A DNA stretch of 64,000 nucleotides. Origin: Escherichia coli. GTDB lineage: Bacteria; Pseudomonadota; Gammaproteobacteria; Enterobacterales; Enterobacteriaceae. The notes beneath the pieces are model-generated. The model saw only the letters and a list, made by a program, of their open reading frames with translations, was not told where the DNA came from and ran no database searches. The position numbers and the translations under genes are program-made. The stretch is from the NCBI RefSeq assembly GCF_036507355.1, contig NZ_AP027877.1; one strand, written 5' to 3'. Positions 7,536 to 63,633 of this stretch are shown piece after piece (within the stretch, counting starts at the first letter, position 1; each line of letters begins with the position of its first letter).

Positions 7536-8948
7536 ATGTCACTCAGTCGGCGTCAGTTCATTCAGGCATCGGGGATTGCACTTTGTGCAGGCGCTGTTCC
7601 CCTGAAGGCCAGCGCAGCCGGGCAACAGCAACCGCTACCCGTTCCGCCGCTGCTTGAATCTCGCCGTGGGCAACCGCTGTTTATGACTGTACAACGTGCG
7701 CACTGGTCATTTACGCCAGGGACACGCGCGTCGGTCTGGGGAATCAATGGTCGTTACCTGGGGCCGACTATCCGCGTCTGGAAGGGCGACGATGTTAAGC
7801 TTATTTACAGCAACCGCCTGACAGAAAATGTCTCAATGACGGTGGCCGGGCTACAGGTACCAGGTCCGCTGATGGGCGGTCCGGCACGGATGATGTCGCC
7901 AAACGCTGACTGGGCACCCGTACTGCCTATTCGCCAGAACGCAGCTACTCTGTGGTATCACGCCAATACTCCCAACCGCACGGCTCAGCAGGTCTATAAC
8001 GGCCTTGCCGGAATGTGGCTGGTGGAAGATGAAGTCAGCAAGTCGCTGCCTATCCCCAACCATTATGGTGTGGATGATTTTCCGGTCATTATCCAGGATA
8101 AACGGCTGGATAACTTTGGTACGCCAGAATACAACGAACCGGGAAGCGGCGGCTTTGTTGGTGATACGCTGCTGGTTAACGGTGTACAAAGCCCGTACGT
8201 TGAAGTCTCGCGTGGCTGGGTGCGCTTGCGACTGCTGAACGCGTCGAACTCTCGTCGCTATCAACTACAGATGAGCGATGGTCGCCCGTTACATGTGATT
8301 TCTGGCGATCAGGGATTCCTGCCTGCTCCTGTATCGGTGAAGCAACTTTCGTTGGCACCGGGCGAGCGCCGCGAGATTCTGGTGGATATGAGCAACGGTG
8401 ATGAAGTGTCGATCACCTGTGGCGAAGCGGCGAGCATTGTTGATCGTATTCGTGGCTTCTTTGAGCCATCCAGCATTCTGGTTTCTACCCTGGTGCTAAC
8501 GCTGCGCCCAACCGGCCTTCTGCCGCTGGTCACAGACAGTCTTCCGATGCGCCTGCTGCCAACTGAAATCATGGCCGGTTCGCCGATTCGCAGTCGCGAT
8601 ATCAGTCTGGGTGATGACCCGGGTATTAATGGACAACTGTGGGACGTCAACCGTATTGATGTCACCGCGCAGCAAGGAACGTGGGAACGCTGGACGGTAC
8701 GCGCGGACGAGCCGCAAGCGTTCCATATTGAAGGCGTGATGTTCCAGATCCGTAACGTGAATGGTGCGATGCCGTTCCCGGAAGACAGAGGCTGGAAAGA
8801 TACCGTTTGGGTTGACGGACAAGTGGAGCTGCTTGTTTATTTCGGTCAGCCTTCCTGGGCGCACTTCCCGTTCTACTTCAACAGTCAGACGCTGGAAATG
8901 GCGGACCGTGGCTCGATTGGGCAACTGTTAGTCAATCCGGTACCGTAA
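7536..8948 (+). CDS. ftsP: Cell division protein FtsP (SufI), Tat-exported multicopper-oxidase-like
   Basis: 470-aa ORF starting MSLSRRQFIQASGIALCAGA (twin-arginine signal); recognised as FtsP/SufI. Confidence 0.95.
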   Translation: MSLSRRQFIQASGIALCAGAVPLKASAAGQQQPLPVPPLLESRRGQPLFMTVQRAHWSFTPGTRASVWGINGRYLGPTIRVWKGDDVKLIYSNRLTENVSMTVAGLQVPGPLMGGPARMMSPNADWAPVLPIRQNAATLWYHANTPNRTAQQVYNGLAGMWLVEDEVSKSLPIPNHYGVDDFPVIIQDKRLDNFGTPEYNEPGSGGFVGDTLLVNGVQSPYVEVSRGWVRLRLLNASNSRRYQLQMSDGRPLHVISGDQGFLPAPVSVKQLSLAPGERREILVDMSNGDEVSITCGEAASIVDRIRGFFEPSSILVSTLVLTLRPTGLLPLVTDSLPMRLLPTEIMAGSPIRSRDISLGDDPGINGQLWDVNRIDVTAQQGTWERWTVRADEPQAFHIEGVMFQIRNVNGAMPFPEDRGWKDTVWVDGQVELLVYFGQPSWAHFPFYFNSQTLEMADRGSIGQLLVNPVP

Positions 8949-13582: not shown

Positions 13583-13686
13583 ACGTTCCTCCTTTATATG
13601 AACTCACCGGAGCAGGCTCCGGTGAGGTGTTGTGAACTTAAGTCTGGACGAAATGCCCGAAAACGAAAGTTTGAGGCGTAAAAAGC

Positions 13687-14850
13687 TTAGCGGGCGGCTT
13701 CGTATATACGGCGGCTGACATCCAGCGTAATGTCATGATTTTCGCCCAGTTGGGTCATGCCGTGCTCTTCCAGTTTTTTCAGCAAAGCCGGGATGGAGCT
13801 GCCGTCCAGACCGTAGTCGGAGAGGTGGGTCGGCACGCCTAATTGCTCAAAGAAATTGCGGGTTGCGGCAATCGCGGCGTCAATACGCTCATCGTCGGAA
13901 CCTTCAGTGATGTTCCAGACGCGTTCAGCATATTGCAGCAGCTTAGCGCGCTTGGTATCGCGTTTTTCATTCCACAGTGCAGGCAGGACGATAGCCAGTG
14001 TTTGCGCGTGATCCAGACCGTGCATCGCAGTCAGTTCGTGGCCCAGCATATGCGTTGCCCAGTCCTGCGGTACGCCAGCGCCAATCAAACCGTTCAGCGC
14101 CTGAGTCGCCGCCCACATGACGTTGGCGCGCACATCGTAGTTTTCTGGCTCTTTCAGGGCTTTCGGACCATCTTCGATCAGCGTCAGCAAAATGCCTTCT
14201 GCGAAACGGTCCTGAATTTTGGCATCAACCGGTTTGGTAACATACTGTTCCACGGTGTGTACAAAGGCGTCCACTACGCCGTTAGCCACCTGACGCGGCG
14301 GCAGGGTGTAGGTATAAACCGGATCGAGCACGGCAAATACGGGCTGAACATGGGCAGAATGGAACGCCTGCTTATCGCCTGTGGTTTTACGGGAGATCAC
14401 CGCACCGGCGTTGGATTCTGAACCGGTTGCTGGCAGCGTCAGCACACAGCCCATCGGGATGGCGCTTTTAATCTCTTTACCACCCGTTTGCAGAATGTGC
14501 CACGGATCGATATTTTCCGGATAGTTAGCCGCTGCGGCGATAAATTTGGTGCCGTCCAGTACAGAACCGCCGCCAACCGCCAGCAGGAAAGTCACTTTCT
14601 GTTCGCGAACCAGTTTCACGGCGTTCATCAGCGTTTCATAAGCCGGGTTTGGCTCAATACCGCCAAATTCCAGCACGTCCATGCCTTTCAGGGCATCCAG
14701 AACTTGATCGAGAACGCCGGTTTTTTTCACGCTGCCGCCACCGTAGGTAATCAATACGCGAGCATCGTGAGGAATTTGTTCGCGTAAACCAGCGATTGCG
14801 CCTTTACCAAACAGAATGCGGGTTGGGGTGTGCAGATTAAAGTTGTTCAT
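13687..14850 (-). CDS. yqhD: NADPH-dependent aldehyde reductase YqhD (iron-containing ADH family)
   Basis: ORF 13687-14874 trimmed to ATG at 14848-14850 giving [17 protein letters not shown]... (387 aa); recognised as YqhD. Confidence 0.95.
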
Positions 14851-14986
14851 TACTTGCTCCCTTTGCTGGGCCAATATGAGGGCAGAGAACGATCTGCCTG
14901 ATGTTTTTCATTGTGATCGCCAGCGCCCTGGCTCTCAATGCTCATTTCTGCCAATGTCTTGCCTATTTCTCCAGAGTGCTGGAGAA

Positions 14987-15943
14987 ATGCTACAAAATTG
15001 CGCACAATCAAATTGCCGCATTATTCCTAAGAAATTACGCGATATGAAACGTGAAGAGATTTGCCGCTTGCTGGCGGATAAAGTTAATAAACTGAAAAAT
15101 AAAGAAAATAGTTTGTCAGAACTGTTGCCCGATGTGCGTTTGTTGTATGGCGAGACGCCTTTCGCACGTACACCGGTGATGTACGAGCCTGGCATCATAA
15201 TTCTCTTTTCCGGACATAAAATCGGTTATATCAATGAACGCGTGTTTCGTTATGATGCCAATGAATACCTGCTGCTGACGGTGCCGTTGCCGTTTGAGTG
15301 CGAAACCTATGCCACGTCAGAGGTGCCGCTGGCAGGGTTGCGTCTCAATGTCGATATTTTGCAGTTACAGGAACTGTTGATGGACATTGGCGAAGATGAG
15401 CATTTCCAGCCGTCGATGGCAGCCAGCGGGATTAACTCCGCCACGTTATCAGAAGAGATTTTATGCGCGGCGGAGCGGTTACTCGACGTGATGGAGCGAC
15501 CACTGGATGCGCGTATTCTCGGCAAACAGATCATCCGCGAAATTCTGTACTACGTGCTGACCGGACCTTGCGGCGGCGCGTTACTGGCGCTGGTCAGTCG
15601 CCAGACTCACTTCAGTCTGATTAGCCGCGTGCTGAAACGGATTGAGAATAAATACACCGAAAACCTGAGCGTCGAGCAACTGGCGGCAGAAGCCAATATG
15701 AGCGTATCGGCGTTCCACCATAATTTTAAGTCTGTCACCAGCACCTCGCCGTTGCAGTATTTGAAGAATTACCGTCTGCATAAGGCGCGGATGATGATCA
15801 TCCATGACGGCATGAAGGCCAGCGCAGCAGCGATGCGCGTCGGCTATGAAAGCGCATCGCAATTTAGCCGTGAGTTTAAACGTTACTTCGGTGTGACGCC
15901 GGGGGAAGATGCGGCAAGAATGCGGGCGATGCAGGGGAATTAA
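14987..15943 (+). CDS. yqhC: AraC-family transcriptional activator YqhC
   Basis: ORF 14816-15943 trimmed to ATG 14987 ([13 protein letters not shown]..., 318 aa) to avoid overlap with divergent yqhD; C-terminal AraC HTH. Confidence 0.9.
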
Positions 15944-15982
15944 ATACGTTCCCGGTACAGCAGCCGGGAACGGGGAAAATCG

Positions 15983-16642
15983 TCAGGCGTTACAGTATTT
16001 TTTTTTAATCACCACAAACAGCGTGCCTAACAAGCCAGCGGTTAACAAGGCAATTGGCAGGATCATCAGGAACGTCATTACCTGATCTTCATGGCGTTTA
16101 ACGAACGGAATCATACTTAAGGCATAGCCGAAACTGGTTACCACGCTGACCCACAGCAATCCGCTTAACCAGTTGAAAAACTGGAAACGGCGGTTTGGCA
16201 GACCGGAAATTCCCGCCATGGTTGGCAGCAGCGTACGGACAAATGCAAGAAAACGTCCAGCCAGCAGCGCCAGCAGACCGTGGCGGTCAAACATGCAGGT
16301 GGCGCGCTGATGATATTTAGCAGGAAGCTGTGCCAGCCAGCCTTTCACCGTTTTGGTATTCCCTAACCAGCGCCCCTGAATATAACTTAGCCAGCAGCCC
16401 AGACTTGCTGCGGCGGTCAGAATCGCAATCGTAGGCAGAAAATCCATAACCCCCTGGGCAATCAATGCGCCTGCCAGTATCAACAAGCTGTCGCCTGGCA
16501 AAAATGAGGCGGGCAGCAGGCCGTTTTCTAAAAACAGCGTGGCAAACATGACAAAGTAAACAACGCTAACAATATGAGGATCCGCCAGCGCGGCAAAGTC
16601 GTGTTGCCAGAGAGCAGCGATGATATCTTGAATAACAGCCAT
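15983..16642 (-). CDS. yghB: DedA-family inner membrane protein YghB
   Basis: 219-aa hydrophobic [26 protein letters not shown]...; recognised as YghB. Confidence 0.9.
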
Positions 16643-19394: not shown

Positions 19395-19610
19395 TTGCCT
19401 GATGCGCTACGCTCATCAGGCCTACAAAATCTATTGCAACATGTTGAATCTTCGTGCGTTTGTAGGCCGGATAAGGCGTTCACGCCGCATCCGGCATTAG
19501 GTGCTCAATGCCTGATGCGCTACGCTTATCAGGCCTACAAAATCTATTGCAACATGTTGAATCTTCATGCGTTTGTAGGCGGATAAGGCGTTTTCGCCAC
19601 ATCAGGTAAG
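19395..19610. repeat. Tandem REP (BIME-type) elements, two near-identical ~80-bp units
   Basis: GCCTGATGCGCTACGCT(C/T)ATCAGGCCTACAAAATCTATTGCAACATGTTGAATCTTC(G/A)TGCGTTTGTAGGC(C)GGATAAGGCG occurs twice (about 19397-19478 and 19510-19590); REP consensus palindromes. Confidence 0.8.
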
Positions 19611-30494: not shown

Positions 30495-30612
30495 ATTAGC
30501 TTTCGTAGGTCTGATAAGACGCGGCAGCGTCGCATCAGGCATTGTGCTCGATTGCCGGATGCGGCGTGAACGCCTTATCCGGCCTGGATGGCTTGCTGCG
30601 ACGAACGCTAAC
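30495..30612. repeat. REP element pair between hybG and yghU
   Basis: GTAGGTCTGATAAGACGCGGCAGCGTCGCATCAGGC ... GCCGGATGCGGCGTGAACGCCTTATCCGGCCTGGA are REP-consensus palindromes. Confidence 0.7.
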
Positions 30613-55763: not shown

Positions 55764-56118
55764 TAGCGTCAAAAAAAGCCCCGGCAAGTTTTATTGTCGG
55801 GGCTATTATAGTAACTGCGGTAGTACATTTATCCCGGAAATAACCGGAGCGATTATCAGGGTTTAACAATATTAAATACCCGTAGCGCATCACTAGCGGG
55901 ATTAAAACAATAATATGGACATCTTAACGATACTCTGCGCCTGCGTGTGCGGAACAGAAACCCTTACCCGATATACTTGTTATGCCAAAGGTAGCAATTG
56001 CGTTAGCAGCGTACTGTTGCTGTAAAGTATAACGCCTATATTTTACAGTTCAGTCCTCTTTTGCTTATTACAACCTTAATCATATCAAGCATATAAAGAT
56101 AATAAGAGACTGAACAAT

Positions 56119-57850: not shown

Positions 57851-58170
57851 GTCGTTTATCTCGCCAGGGAACCGTTTTTACGATTGGCTTCTTAATACAT
57901 AGTCTCCGTTTTACAATGCAAATTGTTTAATATTTATACGTCTGAGCTTCTGTGCTGGTTATAAAGCACCCACTTTCATGAGATCAATTTTAGTATGTTA
58001 TTACATTGCTACGTCTGTTCTTTTCATGACGAATGGCGTTTTTTCTCTTGTTTGTATTTTTCACGAGAGCAATGAGCAGATCAAAATTCCCAAAAACATA
58101 AGATTATTCGCAATGAATCGCCACGGGTTTAACAGACACCTCAGAGTCATTTAAGATGGCTTAAAGAGAG

Positions 58171-58455
58171 GTGCCCATGAGCGGTAAGCGTTATCCCGAA
58201 GAGTTTAAAATTGAAGCAGTCAAACAGGTTGTTGATCGCGGTTATTCTGTTGCCAGCGTTGCAACACGTCTCGATATCACCACCCACAGCCTTTACGCCT
58301 GGATAAAGAAGTACGGTCCGGATTCTTCCGCTAATAAAGAACAGTCAGATGCTCAGGCCGAGATCCGCCGTCTCCAGAAAGAGCTGAAGCGGGTTACCGA
58401 CGAACGGGACATATTAAAAAAAGCCGCGGCGTACTTCGCAAAGCTGTCCGACTGA
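58171..58455 (+). CDS. IS3-family transposase OrfA (HTH domain)
   Basis: 94-aa ORF MPMSGKRYPEEFKIEAVKQVVDRGYSVASVATRLDITTHSLYAWIKKYG... with leucine-zipper-like C-terminus typical of IS3 OrfA. Confidence 0.9.
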   Translation: MPMSGKRYPEEFKIEAVKQVVDRGYSVASVATRLDITTHSLYAWIKKYGPDSSANKEQSDAQAEIRRLQKELKRVTDERDILKKAAAYFAKLSD

Positions 58456-59324
58456 GGTACGCCTTTATCCGTGACAACACCTGTTGCTGGCCTGTTCGCC
58501 TGCTCTGTCGGGTGCTGGATGTTCATCCCAGTGGTTTTTACGCCTGGCTTCAGCAGCCGCATTCACAACGCCATCAGGCAGACCTGAGGCTGACAGGGCA
58601 GATTAAACAGTTCTGGCTGGAATCGGGATGCGTCTATGGTTATCGCAAAATCCATCTGGATCTGCGGGACAGCGGGCAACAGTGCGGAGTGAACAGAGTC
58701 TGGCGACTGATGAAACGTGTCGGGATAAAGGCTCAGGTCGGATACCGGAGCCCGCGGGCACGTAAAGGCGAGGCCAGTATCGTGTCGCCCAACAGGCTCC
58801 AGCGACAGTTCAATCCGGATGCTCCGGATAAGCGTTGGGTAACGGACATAACCTACATCAGGACCCACGAAGGCTGGCTGTATCTTGCCGTGGTTGTTGA
58901 TCTGTTCTCACGCAAAATTATCGGCTGGTCCATGCAATCCCGGATGACAAAGGACATTGTCCTGAACGCACTGCTGATGGCTGTATGGCGCCGTAATCCC
59001 CAAAAACAGGTGCTGGTTCATTCGGATCAGGGCAGTCAGTACACAAGCCATGAGTGGCAGTCGTTCCTGAAATCACACGGCCTGGAGGGCAGCATGAGCC
59101 GTCGCGGTAACTGCCATGATAATGCGGTTGCAGAAAGCTTTTTCCAGTTGTTGAAACGCGAACGGATAAAGAAAAAGATCTACGGAACGCGGGAAGAAGC
59201 CCGCAGCGATATTTTTGATTACATCGAAATGTTTTATAACAGTAAGCGTCGGCATGGTTCCAGCGATCAGATGTCACCGACAGAATATGAAAACCAGTAT
59301 TATCAACGGCTCGGAAGTGTCTAG
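58416..59324 (+). CDS. IS3-family transposase OrfB (DDE integrase core), expressed as OrfAB fusion by -1 frameshift
   Basis: -1 frame is open from the slippery site; contains WVTDITYIRTHEGWLYLAVVVDLFSRKIIGWSM, HSDQGSQYTS and CHDNAVAESFF DDE-core motifs; the first in-frame ATG is at 58512. Confidence 0.85.
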   Translation, partial: KKSRGVLRKAVRLRYAFIRDNTCCWPVRLLCRVLDVHPSGFYAWLQQPHSQRHQADLRLTGQIKQFWLESGCVYGYRKIHLDLRDSGQQCGVNRVWRLMKRVGIKAQVGYRSPRARKGEASIVSPNRLQRQFNPDAPDKRWVTDITYIRTHEGWLYLAVVVDLFSRKIIGWSMQSRMTKDIVLNALLMAVWRRNPQKQVLVHSDQGSQYTSHEWQSFLKSHGLEGSMSRRGNCHDNAVAESFFQLLKRERIKKKIYGTREEARSDIFDYIEMFYNSKRRHGSSDQMSPTEYENQYYQRLGSV

Positions 59325-59339
59325 ATTACCCGTGGCGAT

Positions 59340-59555
59340 TCAGTCATCAGTAATTACGCTGTCATCCAGTTTCGCATAACAGATACTGTCATCACCGGCT
59401 TCAATATAGCTGGAAAAATTCTCACTGATGAAGCGGTAGAAAAGGGCACCGAGTACATACTGTTTAAAATCCCATCCATCTACGGAGCCTCTGACATCAT
59501 TGGCAATGGCCCAGATTTGGCGGTGTAGCTCTGCACGCTGCTGAAGGCTTGTCAT
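59340..59555 (-). pseudogene. hsdM: Truncated type I restriction-modification methyltransferase (hsdM) N-terminal remnant
   Basis: 71-codon ORF MTSLQQRAELHRQIWAIANDVRGSVDGWDFKQYVLGALFYRFISENFSSYIEAGDDSI... matches the N-terminus of type IC HsdM (EcoR124-like) as I recall it, then runs directly into the IS right end. Confidence 0.7.
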
Positions 59556-59758
59556 TTTGTATCCTGTTGTATGATTCTTAAGTACTGTTATTGGCCCGAT
59601 TTTATCGTAATTTCATATTGATGACAGGCTTTGTATGTCATACGTTGCACTGAGAGTTCGTTTGCCCGGTTGTGTAGGCAGCGCTCTTTCAGCCAGGTCA
59701 GTAGAAACGTTGCGCTGACGATAAATACTGAAGCCCCAATACCATCGGGGCTGAACGT

Positions 59759-61636
59759 TCAGTCGGTGAGAATTTCTTCATCCGTATCCATTGTGGATGG
59801 TGATGAATCTATTTTTGTTGTAAGAAATACCCGATTCAGTAGTCTTTGCTTCAGGGCGTTTCTTCGCTCATTGTAGAACTCCGGGAAGCGACTGAACTCA
59901 ATATTTTCATCTGAAACTAACAGCATTGATGGCGAATAGTTGTTTGATGGCTGAGATAGCCATTGTTTCAGGGAAGTATCCTGTTTACTTATATTCTGAG
60001 AGTGATTCAGTAAATGAAGATTAGGTATGGTGTCCCAGTGCTCCGGATTTTCATAAAAGCTGAGGTTCTCTGGTGTATTCGCAACATAATCTAATTTTTC
60101 AAGATATTTCTTTGAAAAATGATTTCTTGGGTGAAGGTGATCAATATGAAACACCTCGGTCGGATTCATTTCAGGGAACAGAAGATGCAATAGTGCGCGG
60201 CAACGACCTTCGCCATATCTGATATTGAGAAGGCTTTCGATGTATTCGTCGTCAAATCTGAGGTCTTTATTCGAGCCTTTATATCTGTCAATAATCTTCT
60301 CAAGAGGAAAGTGAATATCTGAAAGACTATTTTTCATTACATCTCTGATACTCGTGAGTAGCGCATCTGCCTGGCTTCCAAAGATCCCTTTCAGAAGTAC
60401 CATGTAAAACCACTGGCTAATTACTGAGCGTTCATTGTGGTTTTTATTCAGGAGATTAATCGTTGTATATAATGGATGTCCACTGGTTTGCTTTTTGTAA
60501 AGCCAGTAGACCACAGGAATGACTGCATTTTTAGATATCAAAGACTGTGGATTGATGCCGAATCGCCTGATAAGAATAAAGGTCTCCTTGATACAGGATT
60601 TTATTTCAGACCATTGTTGTTGTATCTTACCGACCTCCTCTGAAGTGAAGTTTTTTACTTTGAACCGGACGTCAGAGTCAATAAGCATCAGGCTGGTTTT
60701 TAAGAACCAGTCTCTTTCAATATAAAAACCCATTTCATTATTCTGATAAATGTTTTTTGTCAGTTCATCCAGTTCTTTTCTGAAATCACCCTGCCAGTGC
60801 GCTACCGCTATTGACATCAGTAAGTCTGAAAACTCAAGTTTTGTCCCCCCGCTGTTCGTGCGGATGAAAACATCCAGCACATGATCAATGTCCTGACTGC
60901 TCTCATTGAAGTAGTGGATAAGATTCTCAGTTCTTATCTTGGTATAAAGTTTAAGCAGAGTTTTTCTGGAAAATTCACTGGAAATGAGATCTCTTTTTTC
61001 AAGTTCTGGTACGACAACGTTAAATAAAATATCATCAGGCGAATCATGTTGCTCGTATTTGAATATTTCGTGCAGGCAGAACCAGTGATGTTTGTTATCG
61101 GCAAGTGAATCAGTATATTGCTTCTCGGTCAGGAACCTGAAGTTATACTTCATCATGAGCTCATCGTCTGACTTAAGTGGCGCGGTTAAATCGACGTAAA
61201 GCTTTCTGGGTGGCAGGATGCGATCATCCTGTGCCGAAGGCCACCACATCCGGGGCTGTTTATACGCATACGTTCCACACAATCCAATATATAATGATGT
61301 GAGACGCTGCTGACCATCAATCACGGCCTTGAAATCATGAAACCCAGCATTTGTTGCTACGCAGGGGTTTTCTTCATTAAATCGCTGACAGTATTCTTTC
61401 AGGAACTCATAGAATTTGTAATCATTTTTAATACTGGCACTACGGATATCCCACATCATGAAAGAGTTTATCGGGTAGTCTCGCATGATGGAATCAAACA
61501 GCAAACATATCTGACTGCTGCTCCAGACGAACTTCCTCTGAATTGCAGGCAGAAGATAGTGGCGTAAATTAATTGAATCTATCGCTTGTTTTATCGTTAT
61601 TGCTTTTTCATACTGGCCAGCCATCATAAACCTCAT
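59759..61636 (-). CDS. DUF262/DUF1524 (GmrSD-like) putative type IV restriction / defence nuclease
   Basis: 625-aa ORF; N-terminal DUF262 signatures (LPAIQRKFVW, LFDSIMRDYPINSF, VIDGQQRLTSLYIGL); C-terminal His-Me/HNH-like DUF1524 region (HIDHLHPRNHF ... NLHLLNHSQN). Confidence 0.8.
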   Translation of the reverse strand: MRFMMAGQYEKAITIKQAIDSINLRHYLLPAIQRKFVWSSSQICLLFDSIMRDYPINSFMMWDIRSASIKNDYKFYEFLKEYCQRFNEENPCVATNAGFHDFKAVIDGQQRLTSLYIGLCGTYAYKQPRMWWPSAQDDRILPPRKLYVDLTAPLKSDDELMMKYNFRFLTEKQYTDSLADNKHHWFCLHEIFKYEQHDSPDDILFNVVVPELEKRDLISSEFSRKTLLKLYTKIRTENLIHYFNESSQDIDHVLDVFIRTNSGGTKLEFSDLLMSIAVAHWQGDFRKELDELTKNIYQNNEMGFYIERDWFLKTSLMLIDSDVRFKVKNFTSEEVGKIQQQWSEIKSCIKETFILIRRFGINPQSLISKNAVIPVVYWLYKKQTSGHPLYTTINLLNKNHNERSVISQWFYMVLLKGIFGSQADALLTSIRDVMKNSLSDIHFPLEKIIDRYKGSNKDLRFDDEYIESLLNIRYGEGRCRALLHLLFPEMNPTEVFHIDHLHPRNHFSKKYLEKLDYVANTPENLSFYENPEHWDTIPNLHLLNHSQNISKQDTSLKQWLSQPSNNYSPSMLLVSDENIEFSRFPEFYNERRNALKQRLLNRVFLTTKIDSSPSTMDTDEEILTD

Positions 61637-61697
61637 ATGTTATATTAGCTGGCCTATTTTAATTTATTGCGTGTCGGTAGTACAGTCTTTGCACAAA

Positions 61698-62027
61698 CTA
61701 ATTTATGCAATGGAAAAGCTGACGGCTCGGTTTGTGTTTTTCATTCGGGTAGACTCGCATTGCGGATGCACAAAGTGATGAAACCTGTCTTGCTATATTT
61801 TTACCGAAGTTAACAAGTAGGCCGTGCTTTATTTTTTCACCCTCTGCCCTGATGCTGATGACAAAGCTGAACTGATATACGATTACCTCAATGAGGTCAT
61901 TGCCAAATGTTATGATGGCGGCGTTGTTTATTTCATATTCATAATCCCTCAGGTCAGTGTTAAGTCTTGCTGTTGCATTTACAAGTGCGTATTCTTTATC
62001 GATAATCATAACTTTCTCACTTATCAT
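61698..62027 (-). CDS. Hypothetical small protein (109 aa)
   Basis: ORF with ATG start between the WYL regulator and the DUF262/DUF1524 gene on the same strand; no recognisable motif. Confidence 0.45.
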   Translation of the reverse strand: MISEKVMIIDKEYALVNATARLNTDLRDYEYEINNAAIITFGNDLIEVIVYQFSFVISIRAEGEKIKHGLLVNFGKNIARQVSSLCASAMRVYPNEKHKPSRQLFHCIN

Positions 62028-62067
62028 GTTAATGTGATTTAATCATCACTAATAATATGTTGTGATT

Positions 62068-62781
62068 TTAATTACGATTATTCGTCTGTTTACTCCCGTA
62101 ATGCATTATCTGATGAATAATGTTCATGTGGGGTAAGGCTTCCATAAAGTCAGACTGTTCAATCAGCGAAATGAGTGTGTTATCGATCTCAAACGTTGTA
62201 TCCGGTAATACCTCAACCAGCCTGATTCGGGACAGGGAAATAACGAACACGCCCGATGACGTACATCCGGCAAGAAACCACTCCGCATGGCTGCAAAGCA
62301 GACGATAGGGATGAACGGTATGGCTGACGTTTTCGTCGGTTCTGATACGCACCTTGGTCTGGTTAAGTATGGCGAGCGTTAGTCTGCTGAAATCACCGAA
62401 CAGCGTGGGTTTCTGGCGCGGCTCCGGGAGCATAATCCGGTAGGGTGAAGGGTGCTCCCCGTCAAGCAGAAGGCTCAGCAGTTTGGCATCCATCGCGGGT
62501 AACAGACGGTCAAGATGCAGCAGTCTCGCCAGTATCTTCATATCTCGTTCCGTGCGGCGACGAAAGTAATGTGAGGCAAGCTGATACACGCCGTTGCTCT
62601 GTTCAATATCAAGGTAGGTCAGACGGACGTTGAAATCCCGCCGCAGCGTTCGCGTTGTCACTCCAAATTCTTCTGCCAGCGTCCCGATATGCAGCTTTTC
62701 ACCCTGAAACAAACGGCTCAGGATGATGGAAAGGCGGGTTGCCAGTCTGTCATGTTCGTTTTCTTGTGTTATCAGCGTCAT
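62068..62781 (-). CDS. WYL-domain transcriptional regulator (HTH + WYL), BrxR/CapW-like
   Basis: 237-aa ORF; N-terminal HTH (IGTLAEEFGVTTRTLRRDF); central W[YF]L-type region (HPYRLLCSHAEWFLAGCTSSGVFVISLSRIRLVEVL). Confidence 0.7.
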   Translation of the reverse strand: MTLITQENEHDRLATRLSIILSRLFQGEKLHIGTLAEEFGVTTRTLRRDFNVRLTYLDIEQSNGVYQLASHYFRRRTERDMKILARLLHLDRLLPAMDAKLLSLLLDGEHPSPYRIMLPEPRQKPTLFGDFSRLTLAILNQTKVRIRTDENVSHTVHPYRLLCSHAEWFLAGCTSSGVFVISLSRIRLVEVLPDTTFEIDNTLISLIEQSDFMEALPHMNIIHQIMHYGSKQTNNRN

Positions 62782-62883
62782 ACATCATTTCCGAATTTAG
62801 CCGGGAAATGATGCCAGCAGTAGCGGACAGGATTTGTCCACCCTCTGAAGTTTTTTAAAGTCTGAATACCTTAAATGTAAGTG

Positions 62884-63633
62884 CTAAACGTCAGTATTCT
62901 CAGGTGAATAAAGATGCTTCTGGCGCATGTAGGCAATAAAAATGCAGGATGGTAGCGTCACCCGGTATGCGGGACCGGCTAAATCAATCAGCAGCCAGAG
63001 AGAACTGAGCACCCAGCCCACAGGACCGGCAAAAGCGCCCATGGTACGCGTCAGCATGGCATTTCCTGCAACGGTCAGCCCTCTGCCTAACAGGGCTTTC
63101 GCCACACCATTTGTGACAACAAGTGCCATCTGATAGGCCGCAAACCCGGATGTTTTTATCCCCGCCTGGATTGCCATGGTCAGCAACTCCGGCGTGGGGT
63201 TGCTGTAGCCTGTCTGCAATTCTTCCGCCACGGTCTTTAACTGATCGGGCGTCATCTTCTCAAGGCTTTTCTCCAGGATCTTCATCAGCAGATTCATTTC
63301 AATGGTTTCAACACTGGATTTGTTGTTGTAGTTCACCTTCATTTTATCGCAGGCATCGGTGAGAATTTCCCGGTACGGCACCCCTTTACCCCAGCGGAGC
63401 AGCGTGGCAAAGCTGTTCGCCCCAAACGTCTGAACCTCGGCGGCAATGGCATCCCAGTAGCGCGGGTGGTTGGGCTTGTGTTTTTTATACTGAGGATCAT
63501 AGGTCAGCGTTTCCGTGATGCGTGCCAGTCCGTCTTTCGGATCGCAGATAAGCACAGAAACCAGTAAATCCAGATCGTCACGATGGCAGTGGCGCAGAAA
63601 CTCAAGGTCGGGGTCGTGTCGGTAGGTAGCCAT
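62884..63633 (-). CDS. Hypothetical protein, possibly YaaW-like (UPF0174/DUF3944)
   Basis: 249-aa ORF; acidic N-terminal DDLDLLVSVL region and glycine-rich hydrophobic C-terminus (GAFAGPVGWVLSSLWLLIDLAGPAY); family assignment from memory, low certainty. Confidence 0.4.
   Translation of the reverse strand: MATYRHDPDLEFLRHCHRDDLDLLVSVLICDPKDGLARITETLTYDPQYKKHKPNHPRYWDAIAAEVQTFGANSFATLLRWGKGVPYREILTDACDKMKVNYNNKSSVETIEMNLLMKILEKSLEKMTPDQLKTVAEELQTGYSNPTPELLTMAIQAGIKTSGFAAYQMALVVTNGVAKALLGRGLTVAGNAMLTRTMGAFAGPVGWVLSSLWLLIDLAGPAYRVTLPSCIFIAYMRQKHLYSPENTDV

Follow-up and report, generated by a model that had tools for sequence, protein, structure and literature searches.

In an Escherichia coli genome (assembly GCF_036507355.1, contig NZ_AP027877.1), a gene for a DUF262-type protein lies beside the broken start of a type I restriction-modification (R-M) operon. 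The locus raises the question of what kind of enzyme the gene encodes, and whether it is likely to work without its neighbour. The window analysed was a stretch of 64,000 nucleotides. The evidence makes it very likely that the gene encodes a type IV restriction enzyme of the GmrSD-like BrxU clade, intact and probably able to act autonomously, and each part of this reading is taken up below.

The gene and its relatives

59759..61636, minus strand: predicted BrxU-clade GmrSD-like type IV restriction enzyme gene (six-frame ORF list, 625 codons, ATG start)

The six-frame ORF list bore out the frame given by an earlier sequence-only reading (minus strand, 625 aa). The true start is probably M4 (ATG-4, 61627) or M5 (ATG-5, 61624), which gives a product of 622 or 621 aa. 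A GAGG at ~61629-61632, readable as a ribosome-binding site, lies 3 nt 5' of ATG-4 and 6 nt 5' of ATG-5, and the protein length in database annotations is 622 or 621 aa. The AF2 monomer model (pLDDT 92.3, pTM 0.87) carries a low-confidence acidic C-terminal tail of 25 residues.

Homology of this frame to known families is far beyond chance, and 770 cluster representatives (50% identity) matched the protein at E<=1e-30. Its 90%-identity cluster holds ~3,900 sequences, with Escherichia, Klebsiella, Enterobacter, Citrobacter, Serratia and Cronobacter among the members, and the protein was found at 97-100% identity in several enterobacterial genera. The database label is only 'DUF262 domain-containing protein', and NCBIfam profiles gave no match to it. 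A literature search for activity, expression or substrate data on the protein or its 90%-identity cluster found none, and no accession numbers or peptide strings of the cluster were found in the available portions of the supplements of Silas et al. 2025.

Comparison with BrxU and other DUF262 enzymes

The best PADLOC model was PDLC04151 (E 5.4e-231, 766 bits), a sister HMM within HEC-05, which aligned over protein residues 4-604 and profile positions 19-594 of 600. The other three HEC-05 models reached 154-435 bits, and the next family outside HEC-05 reached 47 bits. HEC-05 corresponds to BrxU, and activity against phage is known for one of its members that shares 99.2% identity with BrxU. In a phmmer search of the PDB the sole matches were the BrxU entries 7p9k/7p9m (E 5.1e-99, residues 9-600), and BLASTP against BrxU gave 35% identity across 600 residues (E 6e-110). 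Foldseek with the AF2 model also placed BrxU 7p9k on top (2.5e-35, 612 aligned columns); the TM score between the monomer model and 7p9k was 0.49-0.52 because the domain orientations differ. The spans of the HEC-05 and 7p9k matches agree with the earlier view that both domains are full length.

The protein is thus collinear end to end with BrxU of Escherichia fergusonii pEFER (PADLOC HEC-05, GmrSD_ECOR21), and shares with it a DUF262 domain, a helical linker and a DUF1524-type His-Me finger. These comparisons place it, at full length, in the BrxU clade of the GmrSD-like type IV restriction enzymes. It differs from BrxU in having LLFDS in place of RLFDS, in the acidic C-terminal tail noted above, and in its partner, which is a type I R-M system here and BREX for BrxU. 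At 35% identity, specificity and inhibitor sensitivity may differ from those of BrxU.

Membership in the clade of classical GmrSD (E. coli CT596 / Eco94GmrSD) was considered and rejected. Pairwise BLASTP against GmrSD_CT596 was only marginal: a stretch of 106 N-terminal residues aligned at E 0.004, and the C-terminal part at E 1.2. Both proteins have the N-terminal DGQQR domain, and their C-terminal motifs are collinear: IDHLHP here stands against IDHLMP, and NLHLLNHSQNIS here against NLTLLNLSVNRS, the latter also being collinear with the second finger motif NLHLLNHSQNISK. By analogy, restriction of phage DNA with modified cytosine would be the biology held in common. Since the clade differs, Ip1 sensitivity and glucosyl-hmC specificity are not transferable.

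The same DUF262 + DUF1524 architecture also occurs in phosphorothioate-sensing nickases of the SspE/DndI type, and the protein could in principle be one of these instead of a modified-cytosine-dependent enzyme. Foldseek returned DndI (9jfl) and SspE (6jiv) at E ~5e-4, and PADLOC gave a weak SspE match (4.6e-5), but this match was limited to 14 residues (104-117) around DGQQR. The BrxU match was better by ~30 orders of magnitude, and no ssp/dnd modification genes were present in the window's last 10 kb or in the intact relatives. An enzyme of this type is therefore extremely improbable, and the SspE-like reading was rejected.

Conserved residues of the two domains

The following motifs were located in the translation.

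61490..61504, minus strand: LLFDS (residues 45-49), corresponding to the RLFDS motif by which BrxU binds nucleotide and switches its dimer state (BrxU alignment, translation)
61304..61318, minus strand: DGQQR (residues 107-111), NTP gamma-phosphate and hydrolysis motif of the DUF262/ParB-like domain (translation)
60128..60142, minus strand: DHLHP (residues 499-503), first element of the His-Me finger (translation, BrxU alignment, 99-homologue alignment)
59984..60022, minus strand: NLHLLNHSQNISK (residues 539-551), second strand and helix of the beta-beta-alpha-Me finger (alignment, predicted secondary structure)

Conservation was assessed in an alignment of 99 diverse homologues with 31-60% identity to the protein. 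Mutagenesis of BrxU has identified S42, Q101, R102, D474 and H475 as essential for defence and cleavage, with D474A and H475A abolishing both. The counterparts of these residues, S49, Q110, R111, D499 and H500, are all present and invariant in the 99 homologues, in line with the earlier description of the catalytic-looking motifs as intact. Substitutions fall at positions that are non-essential or of partial effect in BrxU, where R38, N485, N519 and E528 are replaced by L45, K510, I549 and Q558. R38 of BrxU is dispensable and position 45 is variable among the homologues, and mutations of N519 and E528 have partial in vivo effects.

The sequence-only reading had proposed HMM searches for both domains. 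For the N-terminal one, Pfam GmrSD_N/DUF262 (PF03235) matched residues 16-276 directly (E 1.9e-33), and DGQQR stands where that reading had placed it and is invariant in 99/99 homologues. For the C-terminal one, Pfam DUF1524/GmrSD_C (PF07510) gave no match to the protein even at E<=10, and the precomputed annotations of the 120 homologues closest to it in the database also lack this domain. Among the 99 aligned homologues, 26 matched PF07510 at E<=0.001, and 53 did so at E<=0.1. The C-terminal region also aligns to the DHIYP domain of the BrxU crystal structure, a domain that its authors assign to DUF1524. The DUF262 half of the assignment was thus direct, and the DUF1524 half stands on the homologues, on full-length homology to BrxU and on motif collinearity with GmrSD_CT596.

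HIDHLHP occupies residues 497-503 (nt 60128-60148), and its DHLHP part sits at the end of the strand predicted at 496-500. The AF2 topology continues with a strand at 540-544 and a helix at 545-551. D499, H500 and N539 are invariant, P503 is kept in 92/99 homologues, and N548 and K551 are each kept in 98/99. Judged from this pattern, the predicted nuclease core is D499-H500-x-x-P503, N539, N548 and K551. The earlier description of this region as a His-rich HNH-like block was right in the placement of the motifs, but the richness in His is mostly incidental. Only H500 is invariant, with His at 497 in 70/99 homologues, at 502 in 52/99 and at 541 in 7/99, and the four commonest residues at 506 and at 545 do not include His.

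Loss of the downstream type I operon

58114..59342, plus strand: IS3-family insertion sequence (IS), 1229 bp, with 38-nt imperfect terminal inverted repeats and a two-ORF transposase
59343..59555, minus strand: hsdM 5' remnant, 71 codons of ~518 (NCBIfam TIGR00497 2e-28; PADLOC MTase_I)
59732..59752, minus strand: 9-bp GC-rich hairpin directly past the stop codon of the BrxU-type gene, then a weak U-tract (-17.3 kcal/mol, z -2.2)

The truncation of the neighbouring hsdM, noticed earlier, was confirmed. Over its residues 1-63 the remnant matches a 518-aa HsdM (L001; tblastn) at 100% identity, homology to the intact loci begins exactly at 59343, and the IS end supplies the in-frame stop. Full-length copies of the IS (99.9% identity, annotated 'IS3 family transposase') occur in 178 E. 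coli genomes. The bases flanking the element form no target-site duplication. A tblastn search of the window found neither the rest of hsdM, nor hsdS, hsdR or a second IS copy; a complete set of hsdM, hsdS and hsdR, and with it a functional type I R-M neighbour, was absent from the window. Scanning the window for Rfam families and tRNA genes gave nothing in or near the locus.

At least 70 complete E. coli genomes carry the regulator described below, the small ORF, the BrxU-type gene and the start of hsdM together. Four intact loci were inspected; in each of them hsdM-hsdS-hsdR lies downstream on the same strand, and the distance from the gene to hsdM in those from E. coli is ~200 bp. The 'stand-alone' state ascribed to the gene is therefore secondary: it had the type I operon directly downstream until the IS cut hsdM after codon 71. 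None of the complete E. coli genomes in the collection shares the exact IS junction, which points to an event that is recent and confined to this strain.

Such a history would also fit a silent or decaying remnant, whose frame is intact merely through the recency of the IS event while expression or selection has been lost. Besides the missing junction in other genomes, the destroyed adjoining operon and the weak promoter predictions speak for this view. Against it, E. coli GPEC1189, where hsdMSR is intact, encodes an identical protein, and the gene has zero substitutions relative to the copy in an intact locus. The upstream region with the regulator and the small ORF is 99.8% identical to that of the intact locus, and the IS lies downstream of the gene, not upstream. 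A copy in a further locus with intact hsdMSR (L003) is one residue apart from the protein. We consider a decaying remnant very unlikely. With the essential BrxU residues intact and an identical copy beside an intact type I system, it is a reasonable inference that the gene is probably functional, as had been supposed.

Shuffled sequence gave at least as many promoter calls as the real one, and neither the promoter nor the terminator scan made a usable call near the gene. The hairpin past the stop codon was not called by the consensus terminator scan; it is possibly a weak terminator between the BrxU-type gene and hsdM. A promoter-like site precedes hsdM. Loss of the downstream operon could affect the mRNA stability of the BrxU-type gene.

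In the E. coli loci that are intact, the gene precedes hsdM by ~200 bp on a shared strand; this position, and the retention of the cassette as a unit, would be expected of a non-autonomous accessory of the type I system. Such an accessory would need HsdM, HsdS, HsdR or their methylation, and would have been inert since the IS event. However, both close and distant homologues live without a type I system. A copy at 95.8% nucleotide identity adjoins brxA-brxB-brxC-pglX, a homologue with 66% identity takes the place of BrxU within BREX, between pglX and pglZ, and a 48%-identical homologue stands alone amid housekeeping genes. BrxU by itself and GmrSD_ECOR21 by itself confer defence, and the hairpin past the stop together with the promoter-like site before hsdM suggests separate transcription units. 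Dependence on the type I system is accordingly highly improbable, and the gene is better read as an autonomous type IV enzyme.

Genomic context is no defining feature of the BrxU protein family. BREX embedding was not seen at this locus, and the window and its closest loci pair the gene with type I R-M. In their 'guilt by embedding' study, Payne et al. 2024 found that type I R-M and Hma systems often have BrxU and other GmrSD-like genes embedded in them, oriented the same way. Compared with embedded defence genes of the PrrC/EcoprrI paradigm, the gene here precedes hsdM and does not lie between R-M genes, and, unlike in those cases, the R-M partner is absent from the window. The related L003 locus also has PrrC between hsdS and hsdR.

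The upstream regulator and small ORF

61698..62027, minus strand: conserved small ORF (103-109 aa) of the island backbone, between regulator and nuclease gene
62068..62781, minus strand: HTH(DeoR-type)-WYL transcriptional regulator, 237 aa (Pfam HTH_DeoR 6e-6, WYL 5e-4; PADLOC WYL 4e-15)
62783-62813, before the HTH-WYL gene: perfect 10-nt inverted repeat, candidate operator

The arrangement resembles that of BrxR/CapW-type WYL regulators, in which an HTH-WYL gene lies upstream of defence genes on the same strand with an inverted repeat before its own gene. It differs from BrxR in that a sequence search with the 237-aa regulator did not hit any BrxR of solved structure. The Hafnia island keeps the regulator as part of its backbone and carries other cargo, which has the opposite orientation. 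Given the missing BrxR match and this cargo swap, control of the nuclease by the HTH-WYL protein remains a candidate function.

The small ORF has 76 homologues, all named ones from Enterobacterales and none with a Pfam domain, and it gave no match in the PDB. In Hafnia it lies on the same backbone with other downstream cargo. Among the upstream island genes, PADLOC found no JukB partner for a JukA-like gene.

Discussion

We propose, by analogy with BrxU, that the DUF262/ParB-like N-terminal domain would bind and hydrolyse NTP through LLFDS and DGQQR, and that NTP binding would drive a dimer-to-monomer cycle like that of BrxU, an intertwined homodimer which comes apart when NTP binds. The divergent DUF1524 His-Me finger (D499-H500...N539...N548/K551) would then cut incoming DNA with modified cytosine of the 5mC, 5hmC or glucosyl-hmC class, and host DNA without the modification would be spared. 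We infer that the gene is expressed and its product active.

The gene belongs to the cargo of an integrative defence island that has spread horizontally, where it is placed directly before hsdM-hsdS-hsdR. As it adjoins a type I R-M operon, the pair would cover modified and unmodified invaders. In this window an IS3-family element, leaving no target duplication, has removed everything past hsdM codon 71, with the type IV enzyme as the surviving arm.

A bolder idea, which we regard as rather unlikely, is that this divergent BrxU paralogue differs from BrxU in modification specificity or phage-inhibitor profile (for example by resistance to T4 Ip2 or IPI*), and that it, with whatever cargo fills the slot, answers to the HTH-WYL protein and the orphan small ORF as a portable sensing module.

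The protein is an ordinary member of a well-studied defence family and opens no new question. Its assignment gives a precise annotation, that of a BrxU-clade type IV restriction enzyme, to a widespread 'DUF262 domain-containing protein', although the practical value of this is modest. The protein could also add a data point to the arms race between GmrSD enzymes and phage inhibitors. The locus offers a clean natural case of a paired defence, type IV with type I, in which one arm outlives the IS-mediated loss of the other.

Reading frame and family assignment

The six-frame ORF list gives a single long ORF on the minus strand at exactly 59759..61636 (625 codons, starting with ATG), and the sequence-only reading had placed both this ORF and its two motifs correctly, as the translation confirmed.

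Motifs in the nuclease (translation; residue numbers from the 625-codon ORF)
Residues 45-49, minus strand, LLFDS
Residues 107-111, minus strand, DGQQR
Residues 497-503, minus strand, HIDHLHP
Residues 539-551, minus strand, NLHLLNHSQNISK

The sequence 5' of the gene contains ATGAGGTTTATGATG, and GAGG lies 3 nt 5' of ATG-4 and 6 nt 5' of ATG-5. This spacing, together with public annotations of 622 or 621 aa, suggests that the actual protein is probably 3 or 4 residues shorter than the 625 first proposed. G+C content falls from 52-58% in the glc operon immediately upstream to 39-43% in the nuclease region, a low value expected of acquired DNA.

Pfam assigned GmrSD_N/DUF262 (PF03235) to residues 16-276 (E 1.9e-33) and no other noteworthy domain. 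In PADLOC, the entire protein (residues 4-604) matched HEC-05, the BrxU family (PDLC04151, E 5.4e-231); the runners-up were the three remaining HEC-05 models, and all other families scored at most 47 bits. Payne et al. report anti-phage activity for their HEC-05 representative, which shares 99.2% identity with BrxU. When all PDB chains were searched by sequence, Escherichia fergusonii BrxU (7p9k/7p9m) was the sole match, with nuclease residues 9-600 aligned to BrxU 2-575; by BLASTP, 35% of 600 residues were identical and 55% positive. The classical GmrSD of E. coli CT596 (sequence from Silas et al., Supplementary Dataset 5) gave just a marginal N-terminal match, although its C-terminal motifs are collinear with those of the nuclease (IDHLMP against IDHLHP, and NLTLLNLSVNRS against NLHLLNHSQNIS). 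Membership of the CT596 clade was rejected on that N-terminal E of 0.004, compared with 5.1e-99 for BrxU. The HEC-05 and BrxU matches instead place the nuclease, by sequence, in the BrxU clade of the GmrSD-like superfamily. The earlier interpretation was partly supported, with four corrections, one of them the assignment to BrxU instead of classical GmrSD.

Identity of the C-terminal domain

The DUF1524 search proposed in the sequence-only reading, run directly with Pfam on the nuclease, fails: PF07510 gives no match even at E ≤ 10. When 99 aligned homologues were scanned one by one, 26 matched PF07510 at E ≤ 0.001, rising to 53 at E ≤ 0.1. The C-terminal region also aligns with the BrxU domain that was solved and named a DUF1524 HNH nuclease by the BrxU authors. 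An AlphaFold model built from the 99-sequence alignment was confident (pLDDT 92.3, pTM 0.87), with strands at 496-500 (D499-H500 at the end) and 540-544 and a helix at 545-551, an order predicted to form the beta-beta-alpha-Me arrangement. Foldseek against the PDB ranked the BrxU chains on top (E 2.5e-35 to 4.5e-31, about 610 aligned columns), followed by DndI (9jfl) and SspE (6jiv) at about 5e-4, and no other structure at E ≤ 0.001. TM-scores against the BrxU chains were about 0.5, which is due to a differing domain orientation in the crystal's intertwined dimer. Because of the homologues' PF07510 matches, the BrxU alignment, the predicted topology and the Foldseek ranking, the domain is assigned, indirectly, to DUF1524.

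Conservation of essential residues

Searched exhaustively, 1.84 billion cluster representatives yielded 3892 relatives at E ≤ 1e-3 (770 at E ≤ 1e-30), and the majority of the best were collinear with the nuclease end to end. In the alignment of 99 full-length representatives (31-60% identity to the nuclease), Q33, W38, S49, P55, D107-G-Q-Q-R111, F257, R259, N261, L267, D499, H500, N539 and R591 were invariant, and P503, L540, L543, N548 and K551 were each present in at least 92%. The block described as His-rich was borne out for H500, but its remaining histidines are mostly incidental: H497 occurs in 70, H502 in 52 and H541 in 7 of the 99, and His ranks outside the four commonest residues at both 506 and 545.

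In BrxU, S42A/D, Q101A, R102A, D474A and H475A abolish both defence and cleavage of DNA; Q35A, R38A and N485A are indistinguishable from wild type, and for N519A and E528A the effect is limited to a weakening in vivo (Picton et al.). All five essential residues are kept, as S49, Q110, R111, D499 and H500; the tolerated or partial positions align to Q42, L45, K510, I549 and Q558.

Disruption of the type I locus

Homology in other E. coli starts precisely at 59343 and extends to the window end (97.8-99.8% identity), and at least 80% of 59343-62800 is present in 70 of 5426 complete E. coli genomes. Intact loci have the order HTH-WYL regulator, 103-aa ORF, DUF262 gene, hsdM, hsdS, hsdR and a '5-fold beta-flower' protein, on one common strand in E. 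coli. The island has tyrosine recombinases and a DUF927 protein at its flanks and varies in chromosomal site among E. coli. The nuclease product is identical to that of GPEC1189 and differs only by Q127K from that of a second relative, L003, both with intact loci. The 'stand-alone' state read from the sequence is secondary and not the design, since in intact relatives hsdM-hsdS-hsdR follow the DUF262 gene.

Features downstream of the nuclease gene
59343-59555, minus strand, hsdM 5' remnant, 71 codons (TIGR00497, E 2e-28), 203 bp downstream of the nuclease stop codon
58114-59342, IS3-family element, 1229 bp, 38-nt imperfect terminal repeats, directly abutting the hsdM remnant

The element joins DNA downstream of glcA to hsdM codon 71; in O145 strains the glcA-side flank leads into a Flp/Tad pilus cluster. 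It has no target-site duplication and its flanks differ (gcaa and gtca), and it therefore points to DNA having been deleted or rearranged here, not to a simple insertion; the junction implies deletion, inversion or IS-IS recombination. Neither the rest of hsdM, hsdS and hsdR nor a second IS copy was found within the 64-kb window, and the junction occurred in none of the complete E. coli genomes.

The beta-flower gene, without a PADLOC match, lies 3' of hsdR at 7699-8037 and 7665-8003 in two annotated intact loci (L001 and L002), and L003 has a 112-aa ORF at this position. L003 also carries a PrrC-like anticodon-nuclease homologue between hsdS and hsdR (14833-16152; PADLOC E 2.6e-129, Pfam AAA_13), and thus three defence modules. 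Rfam placed C0719 sRNA in the glcB-glcA intergenic region (55819-56040, minus strand, 291 bits), ES173 at 13621-13684 and naRNA4 at 19465-19535 and 30508-30584.

Independence from neighbouring genes

E. coli MIN11 (L004, 7179-11019) carries the nuclease gene at 95.8% nucleotide identity beside brxA-brxB-brxC-pglX, with an IS1 in between; evidently, this gene shuttles between type I R-M and BREX surroundings. In marine gammaproteobacteria, BREX pglX and pglZ enclose a 66%-identical homologue, and a 48%-identical one is solitary between dapD-like and arsC/dapE-like housekeeping genes. BrxU and the identical ECOR21 enzyme each confer defence by themselves. On this comparative evidence, the nuclease would not depend on its neighbours. 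A 9-bp GC-rich hairpin 3' of its stop codon (-17.3 kcal/mol, z -2.2) and a promoter-like site 5' of hsdM, both weak predictions, hint at separate transcription units.

Upstream regulator and island backbone

Features upstream of the nuclease gene
61698-62027, minus strand, small ORF, 103-109 aa, conserved at 50-97% identity
62068-62781, minus strand, HTH_DeoR and WYL protein, 237 aa (Pfam; PADLOC WYL 4e-15)

The 237-aa protein does not resemble any solved BrxR structure in sequence. Directly 5' of its start codon, a perfect 10-nt inverted repeat, CATCATTTCC-N11-GGAAATGATG (62783-62813), is a candidate autoregulatory operator. BrxR-type regulators occur beside type IV and type I systems, and by that analogy this regulator may control the nuclease. 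The small ORF has 76 homologues (the named ones all Enterobacterales), without a Pfam domain in any, and itself no PADLOC or PDB match; it invariably follows the HTH-WYL gene, also with differing downstream cargo. Hafnia alvei keeps DUF2787, LRAT, short HTH, 127-aa ORF, DUF3944, HTH-WYL and small ORF genes, followed by different genes in opposite orientation. Therefore, the regulator and small ORF are island backbone, and the DUF262-hsdMSR block is exchangeable cargo. The YaaW/DUF3944 protein of this backbone (62884-63633, minus strand), also present in Hafnia, matched PADLOC JukA (E 6e-72), but in relatives the neighbouring genes of the island yielded no JukB partner.

Functional meaning

By its sequence, the nuclease is a new addition to a family that has been well characterised; its activity is predicted, and its genomic context is already in the literature. 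By analogy with BrxU, its DUF262 domain would bind and hydrolyse NTP through LLFDS and DGQQR, and host DNA without modification would escape it. In the intact island, the type IV enzyme would complement a type I system whose target is unmodified DNA; of the two, just the type IV arm is left in this strain.
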